Assembly (NCBI GenBank): GCA_028718445.1
Contig: JAQULY010000166.1
Coordinates: 1-10,327 of the forward strand
DNA length: 10,327 bases
Reading direction: 5' to 3'
From: Kiritimatiellia bacterium
GTDB taxonomy: Bacteria; Verrucomicrobiota; Kiritimatiellia; RFP12; JAAYLN01
A program made the translations under genes and the position numbers. Below, piece after piece: positions 2,744-10,327 of this stretch. Under the pieces are notes generated by a model. That model had not been told where the DNA came from, searched no databases, and saw nothing but the letters and a program-made list of their open reading frames with translations. Position 1 is the stretch's first letter; the number at the start of each line of letters is the position of its first letter.

Positions 2744-3571
2744 TCAAGCAGGCTGCAACATGCGCAGGTACATCCGGACCAGTGTCGGTCCCGTGAACAT
2801 CCACACCAGGGCGGCGGCGGCAATGAAGGGACCGTAAGGAATGCGGCTCTGCAACTGTCGCTTGCCGCACAGAATCAAACCGATGCCGACGAACGATCCG
2901 AAGAACGACGATCCGATCACCGAGAACAGGACCGCCTGCCAGCCGAAGAAGGCGCCGATTGCCCCCATCAGTTTCACGTCGCCGAAGCCCATGGCCTCGC
3001 GCCGGAACGCCCACCTGCCGACCGTGGCCACCAGCCAGAGCGTGCCGAAGCCGACGGCGCAGCCGATGCCGGAGCGCAACAGCGCCTGCCAGTGGTCGGT
3101 GGTGTCGTGCAGCAGGGGCACAAAGGGGCTCAGCGCCAGGCCCAGCAGCATGCCGCCGATGGAGACGCGGTCGGGTATGATCAGATGCTCGATATCCACG
3201 AAGGTGCCCAGCAGGAGACCGAAAACCACCAGCCAATAGACCGGTATCAACAACGGTCTGTCCGCGAACCTGAGCGCGACAGCCAGAAACAGCGCGGCGG
3301 TCAGCACCTCGACCAGCAGGTACCGCGCGGAGATGGGCGCGCGGCAATAGCGGCAGCGCCCGCCCAGGCACAGCCAGCTCAACACCGGGATGTTGAGATA
3401 CCAAGGGATCGGCCGGCGACAGTTCGGGCAGAAGGAGCGTGGACGCACCACGGACAACTCCAGCGGGATGCGATAGATGCAGACATTCAGAAAACTCCCC
3501 ATACATGCGCCCAGCAGCGCTACGAAGGGCAACAGGACGGGGGCCAGTAACGCCAGTTGTTCGGGTTGCAT
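2744..3571 (-). CDS. pilD: Type IV prepilin peptidase / N-methyltransferase (peptidase A24, PilD), ~275 aa
   Basis: Starting at ATG 3571 the protein reads MQPEQLALLAPVLLPFVALLGACMGSFLNVCIYRIP... It carries the tetra-Cys zinc motif CPNCRRPIPWYLNIPVLSWLCLGGRCRYCRAPIS. The catalytic Asp regions are present (IIPDRVSIGG and GFGDVKLMGAIG), and the protein is polytopic. The upstream in-frame extension to 3787 is not PilD-like and has no support. Confidence 0.88.
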   Translation of the reverse strand: MQPEQLALLAPVLLPFVALLGACMGSFLNVCIYRIPLELSVVRPRSFCPNCRRPIPWYLNIPVLSWLCLGGRCRYCRAPISARYLLVEVLTAALFLAVALRFADRPLLIPVYWLVVFGLLLGTFVDIEHLIIPDRVSIGGMLLGLALSPFVPLLHDTTDHWQALLRSGIGCAVGFGTLWLVATVGRWAFRREAMGFGDVKLMGAIGAFFGWQAVLFSVIGSSFFGSFVGIGLILCGKRQLQSRIPYGPFIAAAALVWMFTGPTLVRMYLRMLQPA

Positions 3572-3748
3572 GCGCCGATTATGCACGGCTCCCGCGTCCG
3601 AATAAAGCGTAGACTGATCCCACCGGTGATGGGTCAGTGAGATGGGAGCGCGAGTGGGGTGCATGTGAACCCGAGCGATTCGTACGCGTTTTTCGTGGGC
3701 ATTTGAGCGCCGATTGCGGTGGACGCTTGAGACGTGTCTCCTCGTTGT

Positions 3749-3787
3749 CCGTAATCGTCGCCCGTAATCGTCGCCCGTAATCGTCAA
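3749..3787. repeat. 13-bp tandem direct repeat ccgtaatcgtcgc, 3 copies (third degenerate)
   Basis: Read directly from the sequence: cc-gtaatcgtcgc-cc-gtaatcgtcgc-cc-gtaatcgtcaa. It lies in the pilD / activator divergent intergenic region. Confidence 0.7.
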
Positions 3788-4078: not shown

Positions 4079-5515
4079 ATGGCGGAGAAGCGTCATCATG
4101 CCCTCATGCGGAAGGGCCGCCAACGCAATGCAGGCGCGCAGACGGGAGCGGAGAGCATTCTCGAGAGCATCTCGGACGGCGTGTTCACCGTGGACGCCGA
4201 CTGGCGCATCACCTCTTTCAACCGCGCCGCGGAGACGGTCACCGGCATTCGCCGGCGCGATGCCATCGGTAAGACCTGCTCGGACGTGTTCCGCGCCAGC
4301 ATGTGCGAGACGGATTGCGCCCTCCGACAGACGGTCAGGAGTGGCAAGCCCATCGTCAACAAAGCCGCGTTCATCGTGAATGCCGCCGGCCGCCGGATAC
4401 CCATCTCCGTCTCGACGGCCATTCTGCGCGACGCGCGCGGACGCATCACGGGTGGCGCGGAGACTTTCAGGGACCTCAGCCTGGTGGAGGAACTGCGCAA
4501 GGAGTTGGAGGGCCGTTGCCAGATCGGCGACCTGGTCAGTCGCAGCGCCGCAATGCGACGGACGTGCGAGTTGCTGCCGCAGCTCGCGCCCAGCGATGCG
4601 ACCGTGCTGATTCATGGCGAGACAGGTACGGGCAAGGAGTTGCTGGCGCGGGCCATACACAACCTCAGTCCGCGCCGGAACAAGCCATTCGTGCCGGTCA
4701 ATTGCGGCGCGCTGCCAGACACTTTGCTGGAATCCGAGCTGTTCGGCTATGTTAAAGGCGCCTTCACGGGTGCCACATGCGACAAGCCCGGACGCTTCGC
4801 CATGGCGGAGGGAGGCACGGTCTTTCTGGACGAGATTGGCGATATCAGCCCGGCGATGCAGGTGCGACTGCTGCGCGTGCTCCAGGAAAAGACCTACGAA
4901 CCGCTTGGCGCCACGCGTACGCGCCGTGCCGACGTGCGCGTCATCGCCGCCACCCACCGTGACCTGGCTGCGCTGATCCGCAAGGGTCAGTTCCGGGAGG
5001 ATCTCTTCTACCGCCTGAATGTCGTCAAACTGGAGCTACCGCCGCTGCGCAAACGCAAGGAGGATATTCCCCTTCTCGTCGAACACTTCATCGCGCGCTT
5101 CAACCGTCGGCAGGGCAAAACGGTGACTGGTGTGGCCCCCGATGTGATGGCGCTGCTCATGGCGCACGATTACCCCGGCAACGTGCGCGAACTGGAAAAC
5201 ATAGTCGAACGCGCCTTCGTCCTCCGCGGCGCTGGCCGAATTGAGCGCGCGCATCTGCCGCCCGAACTCACCGGCCTGCCGGCCGTGTCCGCGGCGACGC
5301 CGGGCGACACGATCGCCGCGCAGACGCGCGCCGCGGAAGCTCAAGCCATTCGCGCCGCCCTCGAGCACAATGGGTTCAACCGCCTGGCTGCCGCCCGCGA
5401 GTTGGGCCTGCATAAGAGCACGCTCTTCCGCAAGCTCAAGACGCTGGGCATCGAGGCGCCCGAGCAGGATGGCCGGTCGCGGCCTGGCGCTCAACGCCCA
5501 ACGCGCGGCGTTTAG
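4079..5515 (+). CDS. Sigma-54-dependent transcriptional activator (bacterial enhancer-binding protein) with N-terminal PAS sensor: PAS - AAA+ sigma-54 interaction - Fis-type HTH; ~478 aa
   Basis: PAS region: ILESISDGVFTVDADWRITSFNRAAETVTG... AAA+ region: Walker A GETGTGKELLARAIH, ESELFGYVKGAFTGA (GAFTGA), Walker B GTVFLDEIGD, and the R-finger/sensor motifs. C-terminal HTH: AAARELGLHKSTLFRKLKTLGI. The start is set at the first ATG (4079, M34 of the track ORF). The track start at 3980 is a TTG. The alternative ATG at 4106 has no better RBS. Confidence 0.9.
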   Translation: MAEKRHHALMRKGRQRNAGAQTGAESILESISDGVFTVDADWRITSFNRAAETVTGIRRRDAIGKTCSDVFRASMCETDCALRQTVRSGKPIVNKAAFIVNAAGRRIPISVSTAILRDARGRITGGAETFRDLSLVEELRKELEGRCQIGDLVSRSAAMRRTCELLPQLAPSDATVLIHGETGTGKELLARAIHNLSPRRNKPFVPVNCGALPDTLLESELFGYVKGAFTGATCDKPGRFAMAEGGTVFLDEIGDISPAMQVRLLRVLQEKTYEPLGATRTRRADVRVIAATHRDLAALIRKGQFREDLFYRLNVVKLELPPLRKRKEDIPLLVEHFIARFNRRQGKTVTGVAPDVMALLMAHDYPGNVRELENIVERAFVLRGAGRIERAHLPPELTGLPAVSAATPGDTIAAQTRAAEAQAIRAALEHNGFNRLAAARELGLHKSTLFRKLKTLGIEAPEQDGRSRPGAQRPTRGV

Positions 5516-5531
5516 CGCGAGTTCGGTGGCG

Positions 5532-5553
5532 ACAGTCGCGTGCGGGCGACTGT
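5532..5553 (+). terminator. Hairpin directly after the activator stop (stem acagtcgc/gcgactgt, loop gtgcgg), with a second tggcca-centred hairpin following; weak or atypical intrinsic terminator
   Basis: An 8-bp perfect stem with a 6-nt loop lies 17 nt after the TAG at 5513-5515. The downstream tract aataatgg is A/T-containing but is not a proper U-run. Confidence 0.3.
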
Positions 5554-5727
5554 AATAATGGCGTACAGTCGTGGCCATGCGACTATCGCGGGGCATTAGC
5601 CCTTTCCACATCGCAAGCGTAAAGCCTTAATGGTCAAGGAGTAACAGCGCGCGGTTGTGCCCCGTCCAGGTTTGGCACGCTTCGTGATATCCATACGAGT
5701 GCACAACCACGATAAGGAATGCGGAGC

Positions 5728-6180
5728 ATGCGTGTGGCGCTGACAACCTGGAATGGAAGAATTTCGCCGGTCTTTGACGTGGCGCGCCAGGTCGAGTTGC
5801 TGGAGATAGACAAGGGGCGCGTGGTCGGCAGGCGTTCCGCGGGTTTGCCGGGAACCGACCCGCTGGGCCAGGCGAACGCGCTCTCGGCATTGCAGCCCCA
5901 GGTGCTGATCTGCGGCGCCGTCTCGGGTTCGCTTGCCGCCATGCTGACTTCCGCGGGAATGCAGCTCATCGCCTTTACCGCCGGCGAGAGCGGCAAGGTG
6001 CTGGATGCCTGGTTGGCGGGAGCGCTACCGAATCCGGCGATGACAATGCCGGGGTGCGGCGGCGGACGGCGCGGACGCTGCGGCGGCCGAGGACGCGGCT
6101 GTCGGGCGGGATGGAGGCGCGGTGCGGCCATGCCGCAAATGCGCGATTGCAGTCGGATGCTTGAAAGGGAAGAGACATGA
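5728..6180 (+). CDS. NifX/NafY/NifB-C-terminal-like (dinitrogenase FeMo-cofactor biosynthesis domain, Nitro_FeMo-Co-like) small protein with an Arg/Gly/Cys-rich C-terminal tail; ~150 aa
   Basis: MRVALTTWNGRISPVFDVARQVELLEID...VLICGAVSGSLAAMLTSAGMQLIAF.AGESGKVLDAWLAGAL aligns to the NifX-like fold pattern (ISPHFGRAPYF-IVD ... VIAGNIGPNAF-AL--AGI-V ... G-V-EAL-A---G-L). The tail reads MPGCGGGRRGRCGGRGRGCRAGWRRG. The start at the second ATG (5728) places AAGGA 9 nt upstream; ATG 5719 is also possible. The stop overlaps the next start (ATGA at 6177-6180). Confidence 0.7.
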   Translation: MRVALTTWNGRISPVFDVARQVELLEIDKGRVVGRRSAGLPGTDPLGQANALSALQPQVLICGAVSGSLAAMLTSAGMQLIAFTAGESGKVLDAWLAGALPNPAMTMPGCGGGRRGRCGGRGRGCRAGWRRGAAMPQMRDCSRMLEREET

Positions 6181-6539
6181 AAATCGCGATCACAGCCACT
6201 GGCGATGCGTTGACGAGCGGACTCGATCCGCGTTTTGGACGCGCACGCTATTTCATCGTCGTGGACACGGAGTCGGACGCCTTCACGGCGCACGACAACC
6301 GGCAGAACCTGAACGCCGCGCAGGGCGCGGGCATCCAGGCAGCGCAGAACGTCGCCGGGCTGGGCGCGCAAGCCGTGATCTCGGGCAACGTCGGGCCGAA
6401 GGCCTTCCGCGCGCTCAACGCGGCGGAAATCGCCGTCTACCTATGCGGCGAAGGCACCGTCGCGGATGCCGTGCGGCGCTTCAAGGCCGGCGAGCTCAAA
6501 CGGGCCGACGATGCCAATGTCGAGGGACACTGGGCGTAA
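6177..6539 (+). CDS. NifX/NafY-like dinitrogenase iron-molybdenum cofactor biosynthesis-domain protein (Nitro_FeMo-Co family), 120 aa
   Basis: MKIAITATGDALTSGLDPRFGRARYFIVVDTESDAFTAHDNRQNLNAAQGAGIQAAQNVAGLGAQAVISGNVGPKAFRALNAAEIAVY...GTVADAVRRFKAGEL closely matches stand-alone NifX-like proteins. A GGGA SD lies 6 nt upstream. The ATGA overlap with the upstream gene suggests translational coupling. Confidence 0.85.
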   Translation: MKIAITATGDALTSGLDPRFGRARYFIVVDTESDAFTAHDNRQNLNAAQGAGIQAAQNVAGLGAQAVISGNVGPKAFRALNAAEIAVYLCGEGTVADAVRRFKAGELKRADDANVEGHWA

Positions 6540-6615
6540 ACAATCTGATGCCCGTACAAACACAAGTGTGCGCGGGCGGACGAAAACAAAAACGACAAAA
6601 CCAGAGAGGTGCAAT

Positions 6616-6999
6616 ATGCCTGGAGGCAATGGAATGGGACCCATGGGAATGGGACCGATGACGGGGCGCGCAGCCGGATTCTGCGCGGGTTATGGGATGC
6701 CCGGCTACGCGAATCCAATGCCCGGACGCGGTTTCGGGATGGGCTTCGGCCGGGGCTTTGGCGGGCGCGGGGGCGGGCGCGGTTTTCGCAACCGTTTCTT
6801 CGCCACGGGAATGACCGGTTGGCAACGCGCCGCGACGGGTTGGGCGCCCGCGGTCGGCATGATGCCGCCGGAGTCCTACGCACCGGGCAAGGAACAAGTG
6901 CTGGCGGCACTGAAGAGCCAGGCCGAGTACACCGAGAGCGCGTTGGGCGATATCCGCAAACGCATCGAGGAACTCGAGTCCGCTCCGGAAGACAAGTAG
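6616..6999 (+). CDS. DUF5320-like Gly/Met/Arg-rich small protein with a C-terminal coiled-coil, 127 aa
   Basis: It starts at ATG 6616, with a GAGAGG SD 6 nt upstream, and reads MPGGNGMGPMGMGPMTGRAAGFCAGYGMPGYANPMPGRGFGMGFGRGFGGRGGGRGF... The protein ends in an amphipathic helix, EQVLAALKSQAEYTESALGDIRKRIEELES. The N-terminal MPxGxGxGPMG...GR.AG.CAG signature is that of the DUF5320 family as I recall it. The upstream part of the track ORF (6466-6615) is not supported. Confidence 0.72.
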   Translation: MPGGNGMGPMGMGPMTGRAAGFCAGYGMPGYANPMPGRGFGMGFGRGFGGRGGGRGFRNRFFATGMTGWQRAATGWAPAVGMMPPESYAPGKEQVLAALKSQAEYTESALGDIRKRIEELESAPEDK

Positions 7000-7012
7000 C
7001 GGGAGGTGTAAA

Positions 7013-7255
7013 ATGCCAAGAGGCGATGGAACTGGCCCGATGGGCGCCGGTCCAGGCAGCGGACGCGGTAGGGGGGGGGGCGGCATGGGCATGGGCGCGG
7101 GTCGCGGACGAGGCCGCATGGGAGGCCTTGGCCTTGGCGCGGGCGGCAACTGTGTCTGCCCGAAGTGCGGCAGGAGCGTTCCTCACGAGCGCGGTCAGCC
7201 GTGCGCCGGCCTGTCATGTCCTGTCTGTGGCGCCACGATGACAAGAGGGAACTGA
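7013..7255 (+). CDS. DUF5320-like Gly/Arg-rich mini-protein with a C-terminal C4 zinc ribbon, 80 aa
   Basis: A GGGAGG SD lies 6 nt upstream of ATG 7013. The protein reads MPRGDGTGPMGAGPGSGRGRGGGGMGMGAGRGRGRMGGLGLGAGG, followed by CVCPKCG-x18-CPVCG (CxxC...CxxC). It contains a G10 homopolymer at 7071-7080. Confidence 0.68.
   Translation: MPRGDGTGPMGAGPGSGRGRGGGGMGMGAGRGRGRMGGLGLGAGGNCVCPKCGRSVPHERGQPCAGLSCPVCGATMTRGN
7071..7080. repeat. Homopolymeric G10 tract inside the CDS 7013-7255 (encodes RGGGG)
   Basis: The sequence ggta-gggggggggg-cggc is read directly. A +/-1 slippage would frameshift before the zinc ribbon. Confidence 0.9.
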
Positions 7256-7264
7256 CGCCCCCTT

Positions 7265-8242
7265 ATGACGAACGCCCGCAAGCACTTGTTCGGCCCCGTG
7301 CCCTCCCGACGCTTCGGGCGTTCGCTGGGCGTTGACCTGACGCCATTCAAGACCTGCACGCTGGACTGTATCTTCTGCCAATTGGGGCGGACGACCAACC
7401 GGACGCTGGCGCGCCAGGAGTATGTTCCGACCGCTGAGGTCGAGGCCGAGATAGACGCCTGGCTGAAGGATGGCGGCAAGGCCGACTACATCACGCTGGC
7501 GGGATCGGGCGAGCCGACGCTCCACAGCCGGTTCGGCGAGGTGATACGCTACGCGCGCGAGCGTGCCGGCATGCCCGTAGCGCTGCTCTCCAATGGCACA
7601 CTGTTCGCTTTACCCGAGGTGCGGGAGGCGGCTCAAGCGGCATCGGTCGTCAAGTTATCGCTAAGCGCCTGGGACCAAGACTCCTTCGAGCATGTCAACC
7701 GGCCGCATCCGGGGCTGAATCTGGCGAGGATGGTCGAGGGGTACCGCGCCTTTCGTCGCGAGTTTCAGGGCAAGCTCTGGATGGAGGTTTTCCTGATCGG
7801 TGGAACGAATTCCGTGCCGCGGGATGTGGAGAGGATCGCGGCGCTTGTCGAATCCATCGCTCCTGACGAGATCCATCTCAACACGGCGGTGCGGCCGCCG
7901 GCCGAGGAGTTTGCGTTCCCCGTGCCGCGCAGGGAGATGGAGGCACTTGCGGGATTGTTCACTCCCGCCGCCAAGGCGATTGCCGAGTTCCCATCCGACA
8001 AGTCGGCCGACGTCGCAGCGAACGAGGGGACCATCCTGGCCATGCTGAGGCGGCGTCCCTGCACGGCGCAACAGATTGCCGGGGTATTCGGCATGCACCC
8101 GAACGAAGTCTCCAAGTACGTCGGCAAGCTATTGCGGACGGGCAAGGTTCGCGCTCAGACCACGGGCCCGGATGTGTACTACGTTGCCGGTTGCGGTCGG
8201 GACGCGTCTCGCGAAGGAAGCACTGGAAAGAGAGAACGATGA
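7265..8242 (+). CDS. Radical SAM superfamily enzyme (single CX3CX2C cluster: CTLDCIFC), family unassigned; 325 aa
   Basis: The N-terminus reads LFGPVPSRRFGRSLGVDLTPFKTCTLDCIFCQLG. A SAM/glycine-rich stretch ITLAGSGEPTL follows, then a TIM-barrel-like remainder and a small C-terminal helical domain. It lacks the extra Cys clusters of NifB, MoaA and SPASM enzymes. Its stop overlaps the next start (ATGA at 8239-8242). Confidence 0.88.
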   Translation: MTNARKHLFGPVPSRRFGRSLGVDLTPFKTCTLDCIFCQLGRTTNRTLARQEYVPTAEVEAEIDAWLKDGGKADYITLAGSGEPTLHSRFGEVIRYARERAGMPVALLSNGTLFALPEVREAAQAASVVKLSLSAWDQDSFEHVNRPHPGLNLARMVEGYRAFRREFQGKLWMEVFLIGGTNSVPRDVERIAALVESIAPDEIHLNTAVRPPAEEFAFPVPRREMEALAGLFTPAAKAIAEFPSDKSADVAANEGTILAMLRRRPCTAQQIAGVFGMHPNEVSKYVGKLLRTGKVRAQTTGPDVYYVAGCGRDASREGSTGKRER

Positions 8243-10068
8243 TTATCGCAGTTGCCAGCGGCAAGGGTGGAACGGGCAAGACGACCTTCGCGGTGAACCT
8301 GGCGTATGCGCTTGCCCAGCGCGGCGAGCGGGTGCGCTTGCTGGATTGCGACGTCGAAGAGCCCAACGACCATCTGTTCGTGAAACCTGGTTTCACCGAA
8401 GAGCACGACGTAGTGGTTCGGAAACCGGTGTGGGATGCGGCCAAGTGCACGGCCTGCGGCAAGTGCGCGAAGGCCTGCCACTACAACGCCATCGCACTGA
8501 TCAAGGGGAAGGTGCTGATTTTCAACGAACTGTGCCATTCCTGCGGCGTTTGCAGCTTCGTCTGTCCCGAAGGCGCGCTGACGGAGCGCGATGTCGCGAT
8601 CGGAACCGTGCAGGCGCAACCCGATCCTTCAAAGCATGTGCCGTTCGCGTTTGCGCACGGCACGCTGAACATCGGCGAGGCGCTGGCACCGAACGTCGTA
8701 AGGGCCGTCAAGGAGCACCTCGATCCGCGGGCGATCAATATCGTTGACGCCTCGCCGGGCACGGCCTGTCCCGTCGTCGCGGCCGTGAGAGGCGCCGAGG
8801 CGGCCCTGCTGGTGACGGAACCGACGCCATTCGGCCTGAACGATCTGAAACTGGCCGTCGGGTTGACACTGAAGATGGGCGTGCCTACGGGCATCGTGGT
8901 CAACCGCTCCGATGGGGAGGACAAGCTGATTGCCGAGTACGCCAAGGCGGCCGGTTTGCCGATCGCCGGCCGCATTCCCTTCAAGCGGGAGTATGCGGAG
9001 GCCTATTCGGGGGGAGCCATCCTGGTGGATGTTTTTCCCGAATTGCGGAAGAACCTGTTGGAGATTTACGACAACCTGCGCACCGCCAGGCCGGCCGTGC
9101 CGGTGGCAGCCGCATTCGAGCTGACATCCGGCGCGCCACCGCCCTTGGCGCGCGGCACGGCGGAGCGCTACACGGAGATCACGGTGATAAGCGGCAAGGG
9201 CGGCACCGGCAAGACCACGTTGGTCGCCGCGCTGGCGCACCTGGCGCGCGAGAAGGTGCTGGCCGACAACGACGTGGATGCCGCCGATCTGCACCTGCTG
9301 CTGGCGCCGCGGGTGCGCGAAATGCACGATTTTGCCGGCGGCGCGAAGGCGACGATCGAACCGGCGAAATGCGTGGTCTGCGGCCGGTGCGCGAAGGCCT
9401 GTCATTTCGACGCCATCCGCCAGGACGGTCTGGTCAACGGCATGGAGGAGGCAACCTACCGCATCGAGCCGCTGGCCTGCGAAGGGTGCGGGTTGTGCGT
9501 GCTGGTCTGTCCGGTGCAGGCCATCGCCAGCGAGCGCAGCGTGACCGGACAATGGTTTGTGTCTGGCACGGCGCAAGGTCCCATGGTGCATGCGCGTCTC
9601 GGCATCGCCGAGGAGAACTCCGGCAAGCTGGTCGCTCAGGTTCGCGACCGGGCAGCGAAGCTGGCGGAAGAACTGAAGCTGCCTTTGATTATGGGGGATG
9701 GGCCGCCCGGCACGGGCTGCCCGGTGATCGCCTCCGTTACGGGCACGGATTTAGTGGCCATTGTCACCGAGCCTACGGTCTCCGGCGTGCATGACATGGA
9801 GCGCGTGATGAAACTGGCGGCGCACTTCCGCGTGCCGACGGTGGTGGTGATCAACAAGGCCGACTTGAATACTGAGCAGGCGCGTCGCATCGAGGACATA
9901 GCCAAGGCACACGGATCGCGGGTGATTGGACGGATACCTTTCGACCGCTCCGTCAACGACGCGCTGATGGCGGGCAAGACGGTGATCGAATACGGACGAA
10001 GCGGCGCCGAAGAGTCCATCAGGGGAATCTGGAAGCGCCTTCAGGACGCGCTTGCGAGAATCGGTTAG
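8239..10068 (+). CDS. Tandem fusion of two MinD/ParA-superfamily P-loop ATPase modules, each with an inserted 2x[4Fe-4S] ferredoxin domain (COG1149-like x2); 609 aa
   Basis: Module 1: MIIAVASGKGGTGKTT...CTACGKCAKACHYNAI...CHSCGVCSFVCPEGAL...DASPGTACPV. Module 2 (from ~aa 320): ITVISGKGGTGKTT...CVVCGRCAKACHFDAI...CEGCGLCVLVCPVQAI...DGPPGTGCPV. Each module has the deviant Walker A KGGxGKT, two CxxCxxCxxxCP motifs and a GT(A/G)CP motif. The start is set at ATG 8239 (MIIAV...) with a purine-rich GGAAAGAGAG upstream. The track start at 8191 is a non-ATG codon. Confidence 0.9.
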   Translation: MIIAVASGKGGTGKTTFAVNLAYALAQRGERVRLLDCDVEEPNDHLFVKPGFTEEHDVVVRKPVWDAAKCTACGKCAKACHYNAIALIKGKVLIFNELCHSCGVCSFVCPEGALTERDVAIGTVQAQPDPSKHVPFAFAHGTLNIGEALAPNVVRAVKEHLDPRAINIVDASPGTACPVVAAVRGAEAALLVTEPTPFGLNDLKLAVGLTLKMGVPTGIVVNRSDGEDKLIAEYAKAAGLPIAGRIPFKREYAEAYSGGAILVDVFPELRKNLLEIYDNLRTARPAVPVAAAFELTSGAPPPLARGTAERYTEITVISGKGGTGKTTLVAALAHLAREKVLADNDVDAADLHLLLAPRVREMHDFAGGAKATIEPAKCVVCGRCAKACHFDAIRQDGLVNGMEEATYRIEPLACEGCGLCVLVCPVQAIASERSVTGQWFVSGTAQGPMVHARLGIAEENSGKLVAQVRDRAAKLAEELKLPLIMGDGPPGTGCPVIASVTGTDLVAIVTEPTVSGVHDMERVMKLAAHFRVPTVVVINKADLNTEQARRIEDIAKAHGSRVIGRIPFDRSVNDALMAGKTVIEYGRSGAEESIRGIWKRLQDALARIG

Positions 10069-10112: not shown

Positions 10113-10327
10113 CACAGCCTGCCCAAAGATGGGCGCCTTTCGAGCGACTGGCCGCGCCGTACGATGGCTGGTTCGACAGCGATAGAGGTCGGCGCAACAA
10201 CTGGTCGCTCAAGTAAGAAGAAAACGGATGGTTAATGACGACCATAGGGCGCAAGAGTACCGACGACATTCGTGAAGTCACATGAAAAAGCAAATCGCAA
10301 CGCCGCAGGACGATCCGCTTTTCGGAC

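Follow-up and report, generated by a model that had tools for sequence, protein, structure and literature searches.

A Kiritimatiellia bacterium, a member of the PVC superphylum, appears to carry an orange protein (orp-type) locus. We put a probability of about 0.65 on reading positions 4079-10068 as such a locus, with a redox-regulated operon and a role in metal-sulfur cluster chemistry. The window we analysed is the whole 10,327-nucleotide stretch (contig JAQULY010000166.1, assembly GCA_028718445.1). In it, a PAS/sigma-54 activator precedes six tight, co-directional genes, all open reading frames on the + strand and together spanning 5728-10068. Genes 1 and 2 and genes 5 and 6 meet in ATGA overlaps (6177-6180 and 8239-8242, respectively), and the remaining gaps are 76, 13 and 9 nt. 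A sequence-only reading of the same DNA had described this packing, with gaps of 9-76 nt, and had named the parts as NifX-like, DUF5320-like, radical SAM and double MinD-ferredoxin proteins. The packing was found as described, and Pfam profile searches bore out the parts list. That reading also held that no function had been assigned to such neighbourhoods. It was right that a biochemical function is unassigned but overlooked the ORP system of Desulfovibrio, to which, as judged by sequence comparison, the cluster and its activator are homologous gene for gene.

In Desulfovibrio, Orp3, 4, 5, 8 and 9 form a physical complex that is under sigma-54/OrpR control and has both Fe-S and Mo-Cu-S clusters (PMC6345978, PMC8359166, PMC3897727). 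Our comparisons were with the systems of Desulfovibrio/Nitratidesulfovibrio vulgaris Hildenborough (DvH) and D. alaskensis G20 (Orp3, 4, 5, 7, 8, 9 and OrpR). The proposed identity of the locus rests on its parts: the activator resembles OrpR, gene 1 Orp7 and gene 2 Orp8, genes 3 and 4 bear the Orp5 motif, and gene 6 corresponds to Orp4 plus Orp3. The locus goes beyond the studied Desulfovibrio clusters in three respects: its radical SAM enzyme, which has a winged-helix tail, its two Orp5-type genes instead of one, and the fusion of Orp4 to Orp3.

The activator and its promoter region

The OrpR-like sigma-54 enhancer-binding protein is encoded at 4079-5515 on the + strand (start codon ATG at 4079, translation confirmed) and has PAS, Sigma54_activat/AAA+ (with GAFTGA) and HTH_8 domains in Pfam. 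Over 421 residues it shares 51.5% identity with D. alaskensis OrpR. Its PAS domain holds the cysteine triad C67-x-D69-x6-C76-x3-C80, coded at 4277-4318, and the motif C-x-D/E-x6-C-x3-C is present in all of the high-scoring cluster-adjacent activators (31/31). In DvH OrpR, the C-x-D-x6-C-x3-C triad binds a redox-sensing [4Fe-4S] cluster, and the regulator responds to redox potential, not metals (PMC8359166). Redox control of the cluster by the PAS activator, as suggested from the sequence earlier, is plausible given this identity and the triad.

Immediately past the activator stop codon, a repeat search found a perfect palindrome, ACAGTCGC-N6-GCGACTGT (5532-5553), a putative upstream activator site whose equivalent is kept at the same location in nine PVC relatives. 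An imperfect copy, TACAGTCG-N8-CGACTAT (5564-5586), makes a putative second site. DvH orp promoters have paired palindromic OrpR sites too, of a sequence unlike that at 5532-5586. A predicted sigma-54 type -24/-12 promoter, TGGCACGCTTCGTGAT, lies at 5673-5688 on the + strand, 40 nt upstream of the gene 1 ATG. Its -12 element reads TGA here and TGC in all relatives, among which the TGGCA and (G/T)TGC blocks are invariant; Desulfobacterota loci have the canonical TGGCAC-N5-TTGCT at the equivalent position. We found no IHF-like site in the stretch that separates the promoter from the palindromes. By homology to Desulfovibrio, the activator would carry a redox-sensitive Fe-S cluster on its triad, bind the two palindromes and open the promoter, so that the six genes would be made as one transcript when conditions are reducing and be switched off once the redox potential rises.

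Six genes and their Desulfovibrio counterparts

The first two genes encode NifX-fold proteins. Gene 1 (5728-6180, + strand) is the divergent one: its Nitro_FeMo-Co score of 26.9 bits barely passes the Pfam cut-off of 26.3, and it is related to DvH Orp7 (25.9% identity over 116 residues, E 1.4e-8), to the ORP family of gene 2 (97% probability over 102 columns, hhalign) and to the N-terminal domain of a fusion protein, P0363 (37% identity). The domain terminates in a conserved MPGC, after which comes a Cys/Arg/Gly tail. Gene 2 (6177-6539, + strand; Nitro_FeMo-Co, 80.7 bits) is the orange protein (Orp8) orthologue; over 119 residues it shares 59.7% identity with DvH Orp8 and 57.1% with D. alaskensis ORP. 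Its best match among solved structures is 2WFB, the D. gigas ORP (E 5.7e-20). A Mo-Cu-S cluster is known to be bound by ORP homologues (PMC6345978), and from its homology the gene 2 product would be a NifX-fold, non-covalent cluster carrier.

Two small Orp5-type genes follow. Gene 3 (6616-6999, + strand) is a DUF5320 protein (79.1 bits, Pfam) whose N-terminal motif, MPGGNGMGPMGMGPMTGRAAGFC, is followed by an RGG/FG-rich middle part and, towards the C terminus, a coiled coil. The N-terminal motif is common to N. liaohensis Orp5, in which 14 of the first 23 residues are identical; DvH Orp5 begins MPYGDGT. Gene 4 (7013-7255, + strand) opens with the like motif MPRGDGTGPMGAGPGSGRG but matches no Pfam family. 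Both genes had been called DUF5320-like, which is correct for gene 3 and true of gene 4 in its N-terminal motif alone: the resemblance covers the first 21 residues (hhalign, 95%), beyond which the protein is Gly/Arg-rich and then forms a CVCPxCG..PC..CPxCG ribbon. All six cysteines of the ribbon are kept in 24/24 distinct homologues taken from like gene clusters. Gene 4 is missing from the public annotation (the NCBI accession numbers pass over it), and its exact sequence was absent from the protein collection in which we looked for it.

Gene 5 (7265-8242, + strand; Radical_SAM, 59.2 bits, Pfam) encodes a radical SAM enzyme whose C-terminal domain is an ArsR/SmtB-like winged helix. Its conserved cysteines are those of the CX3CX2C cluster motif (C31/C35/C38) and Cys266, invariant inside the winged helix, and no others.

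Gene 6 (8239-10068, + strand) is an Orp4-Orp3 fusion with two CbiA/MinD (MinD/ParA) halves by Pfam. Each half has a deviant Walker A motif, GKGGTGKT, of the type usual for MinD/ParA, two CxxCxxCxxxC [4Fe-4S] ferredoxin motifs and one cysteine in PGTxCP (C177 and C494, invariant alignment columns). Identity to the D. alaskensis proteins is 42.8% for the N half (with MinD-Fd 1) and 44.7% for the C half (with MinD-Fd 2), and the halves match N. liaohensis Orp4 and then Orp3, so that operon order is kept in both comparisons. ATPases of this type are fused in 13 further species loci and split in the remainder. The closest solved structure is an archaeal MinD, the match being confined to the Walker A region. 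The product is, by its motifs, a pseudo-dimeric MinD-type ATPase with four predicted [4Fe-4S] sites. A decayed methyltransferase gene lies 3' of gene 6. Neither an MrpORP nor a NifU gene is present within the window, which stops 259 nt past gene 6.

Neighbourhoods in relatives and kindred systems

The sequence-only reading stated that such neighbourhoods recur in anaerobes, and they do. Among 23 well-flanked loci (different species, at least 8 kb either side of the radical SAM gene), the arrangement is conserved: genes for MinD-ferredoxin proteins (19 loci), ORP-like NifX (18), the activator (17) and DUF5320 (15) recur, almost always on one strand with the radical SAM gene, which is linked to ORP-type genes in 19/23. 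Relatives add cofactor-maturation genes, namely a HydG equivalog (447 bits), an AcsV/RACo-like activase and NifU_N, and one Desulfobacterota locus (L086) has the whole set together with NifU and an Mrp scoring 371 bits on the MrpORP model. Across the 80 loci screened, partners were Fe-S, radical SAM, NifU, Mrp, HydG-like and methyltransferase genes.

With Desulfovibrio ORP, the Kiritimatiellia locus shares the OrpR-type activator with its cysteine triad, the sigma-54 promoter and paired palindromes, the orange protein orthologue (57-60% identity), an Orp7-like protein, Orp5-type small proteins, and Orp4- then Orp3-like MinD-ferredoxin ATPases in the order kept. It differs in that its genes form a single co-directional unit with Orp4 and Orp3 fused, in having two Orp5-type genes (one with the six-Cys ribbon) and an inserted radical SAM/winged-helix gene, in the want of MrpORP and an IHF-like site in the window, and in its host, which is not a member of the Desulfobacterota. 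A second kind of cluster, DUF134 - NifX - MinD-ferredoxin x2 - NifX - Zn-ribbon (relatives of MTH1175, TM1290 and PH0822, for which structures exist), shares the NifX-fold and MinD-ferredoxin core and the small Cys-rich partners, and it is in clusters of this type that the proteins closest to D. gigas ORP are encoded. There, however, a DUF134 regulator replaces OrpR/sigma-54, and the radical SAM gene is missing in the two examined. With P-loop ATPases of the Mrp/Nbp35/ApbC, CooC and NifH family, gene 6 has in common a deviant Walker A (GKGGxGKT) and an ATPase logic that depends on dimers. In those relatives, cysteines near switch II bind a bridging metal or cluster, whereas each half of gene 6 holds an inserted 2x[4Fe-4S] ferredoxin domain and a single invariant cysteine (PGTxCP).

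What the locus may do

Metal-sulfur cluster assembly or remodelling is the role our analysis favours. Together, the six products would use ATP and SAM to build, remodel or pass on a metal-sulfur cluster that sits on NifX-fold carriers. NifU and Mrp(ORP) proteins, neighbours in relatives, may deliver Fe-S units; DvH MrpORP passes Fe-S clusters to Orp3/Orp4 in vitro (PMC6345978). The radical SAM enzyme may work on whatever the Orp7-like carrier presents, and the fused ATPase could give ATP-gated transfer or low-potential electrons, like its NifH, CooC and Nbp35 relatives. A functional link between radical SAM and NifX-fold proteins, proposed earlier, is borne out by their adjacency in many loci and their fusion in P0363 (Orp7-like domain) and P0389 (Nitro_FeMo-Co); other relatives of gene 5 are fused to NifU_N (P0026) or a methyltransferase (P0391).

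It was from these same parts that a split NifB-like module had been proposed, in which the radical SAM and NifX-fold proteins fuse Fe-S units and insert a SAM-derived carbide to give a nitrogenase-like cofactor precursor. We find this quite unlikely. The label proved unspecific: NifB models do not figure in the NCBIfam matches of gene 5 (the best, TYW1, reaches 36.9 bits against a cut-off of 318), PFL-AE, viperin and TYW1 fit its fold as well as NifB does, and identity to NifB is 14-16%. With C31/C35/C38 and C266 alone conserved, gene 5 has no ligands for the K1 and K2 clusters of NifB, and the observation that auxiliary clusters are lacking was sound. So was the observation that nif genes are lacking nearby, nifHDKEN being absent both from the window and from the gene families that were screened across 80 loci. 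Set beside NifB, NifX and NafY of nitrogenase cofactor biosynthesis, gene 5 differs in bearing a winged helix, and in its relatives the NifX-fold domains are separate or fused N-terminally, an order opposite to that of NifB. It is also unlikely that the enzyme modifies proteins by, for example, cross-linking, methylation or a glycyl radical. The Gly/Arg-rich products of genes 3 and 4, or the MPGC tail of gene 1, would be its substrates, yet an Orp5-type gene is absent upstream in 30/64 loci and the fusion partners are NifX-fold, NifU and methyltransferase domains, never small proteins. Nor has gene 5 a SPASM/twitch cysteine set; it scores 22 bits on the PFLA model (cut-off 232), and its C-terminal domain has the three-helix-plus-wing order of a wHTH, not the strand-first order of peptide-recognition elements.

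For the Desulfovibrio complex, a cell-division or positioning device has been proposed, in which the MinD-like ATPase would, with its partners, determine where the septum or another structure forms, the clusters being redox sensors only. In DvH, losing ORP expression has a single reported phenotype, altered cell morphology (PMC8359166), and it is seen on loss of OrpR; MrpORP sits at the cell poles, and a putative MinD-like amphipathic helix lies at the C terminus of Orp3/Orp4 (PMC6345978, PMC8359166). The MinD/ParA-type Walker A in both halves of gene 6 would fit. We nevertheless regard a positioning role as quite improbable here: min, fts and par genes are missing from the linked partners screened in 80 loci, NifH, CooC and Nbp35 of the same ATPase class handle metal clusters, and the ORP authors themselves describe the role as unclear. 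Hardly credible, to our minds, is the sequestration, methylation or export of thiometallates, arsenic or the like that form in sulfidic habitats. ORP as isolated does hold a Mo-Cu-S cluster (PMC6345978), extra genes in some relatives encode an ArsP-type arsenic efflux protein (134 bits), SAM methyltransferases, TrmO-like and DsrE proteins and ZnuABC-like transporters, and the decayed methyltransferase gene would accord with it. Such genes are accessory, though (ArsP in 3/23 well-flanked loci, each methyltransferase type in at most 5/23), the window has no intact one, and the redox-sensing DvH regulator does not answer to metals (PMC8359166).

Several observations count against our reading of the locus and its role: the TGA of the -12 element, palindromes unlike the DvH OrpR sites, the missing IHF-like site, the absence of MrpORP and NifU from the window, the generic fold matches of gene 5 and a DvH phenotype confined to morphology. 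The canonical Desulfovibrio loci examined also do without the radical SAM enzyme; no such gene is near the three Desulfovibrio-type orp loci compared. Where it is conserved, as in this Kiritimatiellia locus, the radical SAM enzyme points to metal-sulfur cluster assembly as the probable job of the ORP system.

The cluster and its Desulfovibrio counterparts

The window is an entire 10,327-bp contig from a Kiritimatiellia metagenome-assembled genome. Its six genes are tightly packed on the + strand, and with one correction, to gene 4, we recovered them as the sequence-only reading had drawn them: open reading frames, Pfam and hhalign together reproduced its coordinates, overlaps, gaps and domains. 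Genes 1 (5728-6180) and 2 (6177-6539) overlap by an ATGA at 6177-6180, as do genes 5 (7265-8242) and 6 (8239-10068) at 8239-8242; the remaining gaps are 76, 13 and 9 nt. Upstream, also on the + strand, the activator gene runs from an ATG at 4079 to 5515 and encodes PAS, Sigma54_activat and HTH_8 domains (Pfam). The Pfam family Nitro_FeMo-Co (PF02579) is matched by gene 2 at 80.7 bits and by gene 1 at 26.9 bits, against a cut-off of 26.3; profile–profile comparison (hhalign) identified gene 1 as a divergent NifX fold with 97% probability over 102 columns. Gene 5 scores 59.2 bits on Radical_SAM, and the 609-residue product of gene 6 comprises two CbiA/MinD halves with four Fer4 stretches (both Pfam).

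Two DUF5320-like proteins had been proposed. Gene 3 (6616-6999, + strand) is one, matching positions 1-99 of the DUF5320 profile (PF17253, Pfam) at 79.1 bits. Gene 4 (7013-7255, + strand) encodes an 80-residue, Gly/Arg-rich protein with a six-cysteine ribbon that has no match in a Pfam search, and its profile–profile match to DUF5320 (95%) is limited to N-terminal residues 1-21. The public annotation skips this gene. The other five cluster proteins carry the consecutive NCBI accessions MDD5706386-90, in which MDD5706388 (DUF5320) is followed by MDD5706389 (radical SAM) with no gap in numbering. The exact gene 4 sequence has no match in a collection of 15 billion proteins, and its homologues, 24 distinct sequences, retain the motif and the cysteines. 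Public labels for the cluster genes are generic, such as ‘NifB/NifX family’ and ‘P-loop NTPase’.

Terminator matches in the region number six against 5.4 expected, which is chance level, and a scan for sigma-70 promoters gave zero matches; there is thus no sign of internal breaks. An Rfam scan of the whole window came back empty. Long - strand reading frames in the region, 8629-9591 and 6437-7186 among them, we dismissed as by-products of a 63-68% G+C content, because every + strand gene has conserved homologues. The - strand genes further upstream, encoding a flotillin/Band_7 protein (281-1795), an NfeD-like membrane protein (1829-2479, a sub-threshold match) and an A24 prepilin peptidase (2744-3787), appear unrelated to the cluster. 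At the other edge, positions 10130-10195 read WAPFERLAAPYDGWFDSDRGRR, a remnant of a Methyltransf_11 N-terminus that is 68% identical over 22 residues to the protein of a related locus (L002); it looks like a decayed methyltransferase gene, since a stop codon interrupts the frame, and in relatives the Methyltransf_11 gene comes after the radical SAM gene. A last + strand reading frame (MKKQIATPQDDPLFG...) begins at 10283 and runs off the contig end at 10327, with no match among the accessory proteins tested.

In NCBIfam, the ATPase and the proteins with a NifX fold partly matched ‘MrpORP’, and this first pointed to the orange protein (ORP) system of Desulfovibrio. There the operons orp3-4-5 and orp7-8-9 are controlled by sigma-54, IHF and the activator OrpR, and encode a complex of Orp3, 4, 5, 8 and 9 (PMC8359166, PMC6345978, PMC3897727). 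We rebuilt DVU2109 from its published alignment and used it as a query to fetch three canonical loci, from D. alaskensis (L091), D. vulgaris Hildenborough (DvH; L092, orp1) and N. liaohensis (L094), which were compared with the window by BLASTP. The activator is 51.5% identical to D. alaskensis OrpR over 421 residues. Over its full 119 residues, gene 2 is 59.7% identical to DvH Orp8 and 57.1% to the D. alaskensis orange protein, and the best solved structure for it is the orange protein of D. gigas (2WFB, E 5.7e-20); sequence searches of solved structures gave no near match to the products of genes 1, 5 and 6. Gene 1 matches DvH Orp7 at 25.9% over 116 residues (E 1.4e-8), and both proteins close with ‘MPGC’ followed by a Cys/Arg tail. 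The N-terminal half of gene 6 finds as its top match the first MinD-ferredoxin protein, Orp4-like (42.8%, D. alaskensis), and the C-terminal half the second, Orp3-like (44.7-46.9%, with D. alaskensis at 44.7%). Orp5 begins MPYGDGT in DvH, as read from a promoter figure and a primer, and MPGMNGTGPVGRGPGAGRGMGRC in N. liaohensis; genes 3 and 4 open with the same Orp5 motif, MPxGxGTGPxGxGPxxGRG, with 14 of 23 residues identical to N. liaohensis Orp5. Against the family models, Orp5 reaches 24.7 bits on DUF5320 and Orp7 21.3 bits on Nitro_FeMo-Co.

By these comparisons with the canonical loci, the regulator and five of the six genes have counterparts, as judged by sequence, in the ORP system, the exception being the radical SAM gene. 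An OrpR-type activator, Orp8, Orp7-type and Orp5-type proteins and the Orp3 and Orp4 ATPases are all present, which gives the cluster a known relative. There are differences too. No radical SAM gene lies nearby in any of the three Desulfovibrio-type loci. No gene for MrpORP (Orp9) was found in the window, which ends 259 nt past gene 6. Orp3 and Orp4, two MinD-like ATPases in Desulfovibrio that have two [4Fe-4S] ferredoxin motifs apiece, are here the halves of one protein. The ATPase is likewise fused at loci from 13 further species and split at others, which supports an Orp4–Orp3 heterodimer; among the fused proteins, invariance extends to the two Walker A motifs, to all 16 cysteines of the ferredoxin motifs and to a single PGTxCP cysteine in each half (C177 and C494).

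The small proteins deserve a word of their own. The 21-residue N-terminal motif MPxGxGTGPxGxGPxxGRGxG is common to DUF5320 proteins, gene 4 and Desulfovibrio Orp5; it is encoded at 6616-6684 and 7013-7075 in the window and in the stretch 5861-6202, on the - strand, of L094. The related ‘MPGC’ ends the Orp7-like domain of gene 1, at about 6049-6060. In its central part the gene 3 protein is rich in RGG/FG, a trait of eukaryotic proteins that undergo phase separation.

A probable redox-sensing activator and its DNA

In Desulfovibrio the PAS activator OrpR responds to redox potential by means of a [4Fe-4S] cluster; C52, C61 and C65 hold the cluster, and D/E54 is close by (PMC8359166, PMC6345978, PMC3897727). 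The activator of the window preserves the spacing of this triad, C67-S-D69-x6-C76-x3-C80, in the stretch CSDVFRASMCETDC encoded at 4277-4318, and C-x-D/E-x6-C-x3-C is present in all 31 of the cluster-adjacent activators scoring above 540 bits.

When the region between activator and gene 1 was aligned for ten PVC loci, a TGGCA...(G/T)TGC block proved invariant outside the -12 element of the window. This block is a candidate sigma-54 -24/-12 promoter, TGGCACGCTTCGTGAT, at 5673-5688, 40 nt ahead of the gene 1 ATG; Desulfobacterota loci have a canonical TGGCAC-N5-TTGCT at the equivalent place. The -12 element itself (5685-5687) reads TGA, against TGC in all nine aligned PVC relatives; the promoter could be weakened, the strain could vary here, or the assembly could be in error. 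Directly after the activator stop codon comes a perfect 8+8 palindrome, ACAGTCGC-N6-GCGACTGT (5532-5553), followed by a second, TACAGTCG-N8-CGACTAT (5564-5586). Both are putative activator sites and both are conserved in relatives; they share the paired layout of the OrpR sites of DvH and differ from them in sequence. The DvH system is also under IHF control, whereas the interval between palindromes and promoter (5587-5672) holds no match to the IHF consensus WATCARNNNNTTR with one mismatch or fewer. By analogy with the Desulfovibrio experiments, we infer that redox-dependent sigma-54 activation and complex formation probably carry over to the present cluster.

The radical SAM enzyme and the company it keeps

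Gene 5 is the member that the canonical loci lack. In an alignment of 46 homologues, no cysteines are invariant beyond those of CX3CX2C (C31, C35 and C38) and C266, which sits in the C-terminal winged helix. The family is large, about 1030 clusters at 50% identity (E<=1e-30), and no curated family fits it; the best of 19 NCBIfam matches, TYW1, reaches 36.9 bits where the cut-off is 318. The AlphaFold model is confident (pLDDT 88.6), and Foldseek finds it about equally like a number of compact radical SAM cores, with NifB at E 1.6e-10, TYW1 at 7e-10 and viperin at 1.5e-9. In the same model the C-terminal domain is a three-helix-plus-wing wHTH of the kind found in ArsR/SmtB-type repressors.

Two known enzyme types bear on what gene 5 might be. 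The sequence-only reading had seen a split NifB. Its pairing of NifX-fold proteins and a radical SAM enzyme stands; membership of NifB does not, for the ligands of the K1 and K2 auxiliary clusters are missing from the 46 homologues, no NifB model figures among the 19 NCBIfam matches, the fold matches NifB no better than it does PFL-AE or viperin, and nif genes are absent both from the window and from the gene families that were screened at 80 related loci. The marks of a SPASM/twitch peptide maturase are missing too: the extra conserved cysteines of an auxiliary-cluster set are absent and the C-terminal domain is ArsR/SmtB-like, not PqqD-like. The wider thought that the enzyme matures a precursor peptide encoded by a small gene beside it is weakened, because at only 34 of 64 loci do the 1 kb ahead of the radical SAM gene contain a gene bearing the Orp5 or MPGC motif, an arrangement that is frequent and not obligatory.

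Natural fusions are informative about its partners. In P0363 the radical SAM enzyme is joined to an Orp7-like domain that shares 37% identity with gene 1 (E 2e-22), and in P0389 to a Nitro_FeMo-Co domain; in two further homologues the enzyme is joined to NifU_N (P0026) or to a class I methyltransferase (P0391). Together with the fusion of Orp4 to Orp3, those with Orp7-type, NifU and methyltransferase proteins name partners for joint testing.

The same associations recur in gene neighbourhoods. When the radical SAM alignment was run against a single genome from each species, it yielded 255 relatives, the best 80 of which come from Kiritimatiellia, Verrucomicrobiota and Lentisphaerae and, in many cases, Desulfobacterota. 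Six-frame reading frames of these 80 loci were searched with the window proteins and accessory proteins, and neighbours were counted at the 23 loci where 8 kb or more flank the radical SAM gene on both sides. MinD-ferredoxin genes are found at 19 of the 23, ORP-like NifX genes at 18, the activator at 17, DUF5320 at 15, NifU_N at 14, Orp7-like and gene-4-like genes at 13 each, an Mrp-type ATPase at 11 and a RACo/AcsV-like activase at nine; nearly all are co-directional. One Desulfobacterota locus (L086) reads activator, Orp7-like, DUF5320, radical SAM, ORP, Mrp, two MinD-ferredoxin genes, two NifX genes and NifU, its Mrp scoring 371 bits on the MrpORP model NF041136 across the whole P-loop part.

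Accessory genes in the relatives, none of them intact within the window, encode a HydG equivalog, an AcsV/RACo-like reductive activase, NifU_N, PanD, a cystathionine-lyase family enzyme, a CoA-disulfide-reductase-like flavoprotein, TrmO-like and class I methyltransferases, an ArsP-type efflux protein and ZnuABC-like transporters. Close relatives have the HydG equivalog (447 bits, cut-off 312) inside their extended ORP/radical SAM cluster, at 11211-12719 of L002 and also in L008, L010 and L033. Neither hydE nor hydF is in the gene list of L002, the one locus with called genes that we inspected, and this suggests that a HydG-type synthon maker may be employed outside [FeFe]-hydrogenase maturation.

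OrpR is not the only regulator in play. Clusters with the proteins most closely related to D. gigas orange protein (L088 7942-11917 and L090 7985-11905) run small protein, NifX, two MinD-ferredoxin genes, NifX and Zn_ribbon_8; no radical SAM gene is present and OrpR does not adjoin either, and in front of L088 lies a DUF134 gene. In the cultured Kiritimatiellota strain Pontiella sulfatireligans F21 (L069 9442-13677), a possible experimental entry point, the order is Rrf2, radical SAM homologue, HD, DUF134, DUF5320, ferredoxin and MFS. Besides OrpR, then, no fewer than two types of regulator, DUF134 and Rrf2, are connected with the ORP core.

A proposed role and what it means

Years of work on the Desulfovibrio ORP complex have dealt with its regulation, its Fe-S delivery and its Mo-Cu-S cluster. 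With the system already known and its regulator well studied, this is therefore not a new kind of system. What is new against the literature we found is that the PVC superphylum has the system, that it includes a conserved radical SAM/winged-helix member, which also occurs in fusions, that Orp4 is fused to Orp3, and that sequence probably places Orp5 in the DUF5320 motif family and Orp7 in the NifX fold. The term ‘radical SAM’ is absent from the ORP papers we found, no newer ORP paper surfaced, and DUF5320 receives passing mentions only, in unrelated papers.

On our reading, NifX-fold carriers hold a metal-sulfur cluster that this system probably assembles or remodels, the radical SAM enzyme acting on the Orp7-like carrier and the fused ATPase perhaps behaving as its NifH, CooC and Nbp35 relatives do. 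Modification of Gly-rich proteins, a part in cell division and metalloid handling are each weaker accounts. A bolder form of the cluster-assembly reading, to which we would give roughly one chance in five, holds that ORP-type systems are a widespread radical-SAM-dependent, NifB-independent assembly line for a new metal-sulfur cofactor of anaerobes, possibly heterometallic or organometallic. On such a line the radical SAM enzyme would receive a precursor cluster from the Orp7-like NifX-fold protein, with which it forms a single polypeptide in some genomes; the product would be carried by the orange protein; and the Orp4–Orp3 ATPase would serve as an insertase or reductase in the manner of NifH or CooC. 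Lack of the cofactor would then lie behind the altered cell shape seen in Desulfovibrio, as an indirect consequence.

The ORP system, with the same type of redox-sensing activator, thus extends beyond the sulfate reducers: it occurs widely in Desulfobacterota as well as in the PVC superphylum. In these groups a dedicated radical SAM enzyme and a NifU scaffold regularly accompany it, as do HydG-like and reductive-activase genes in some genomes, company that moves the most economical hypothesis for its function from cell division towards cofactor assembly.
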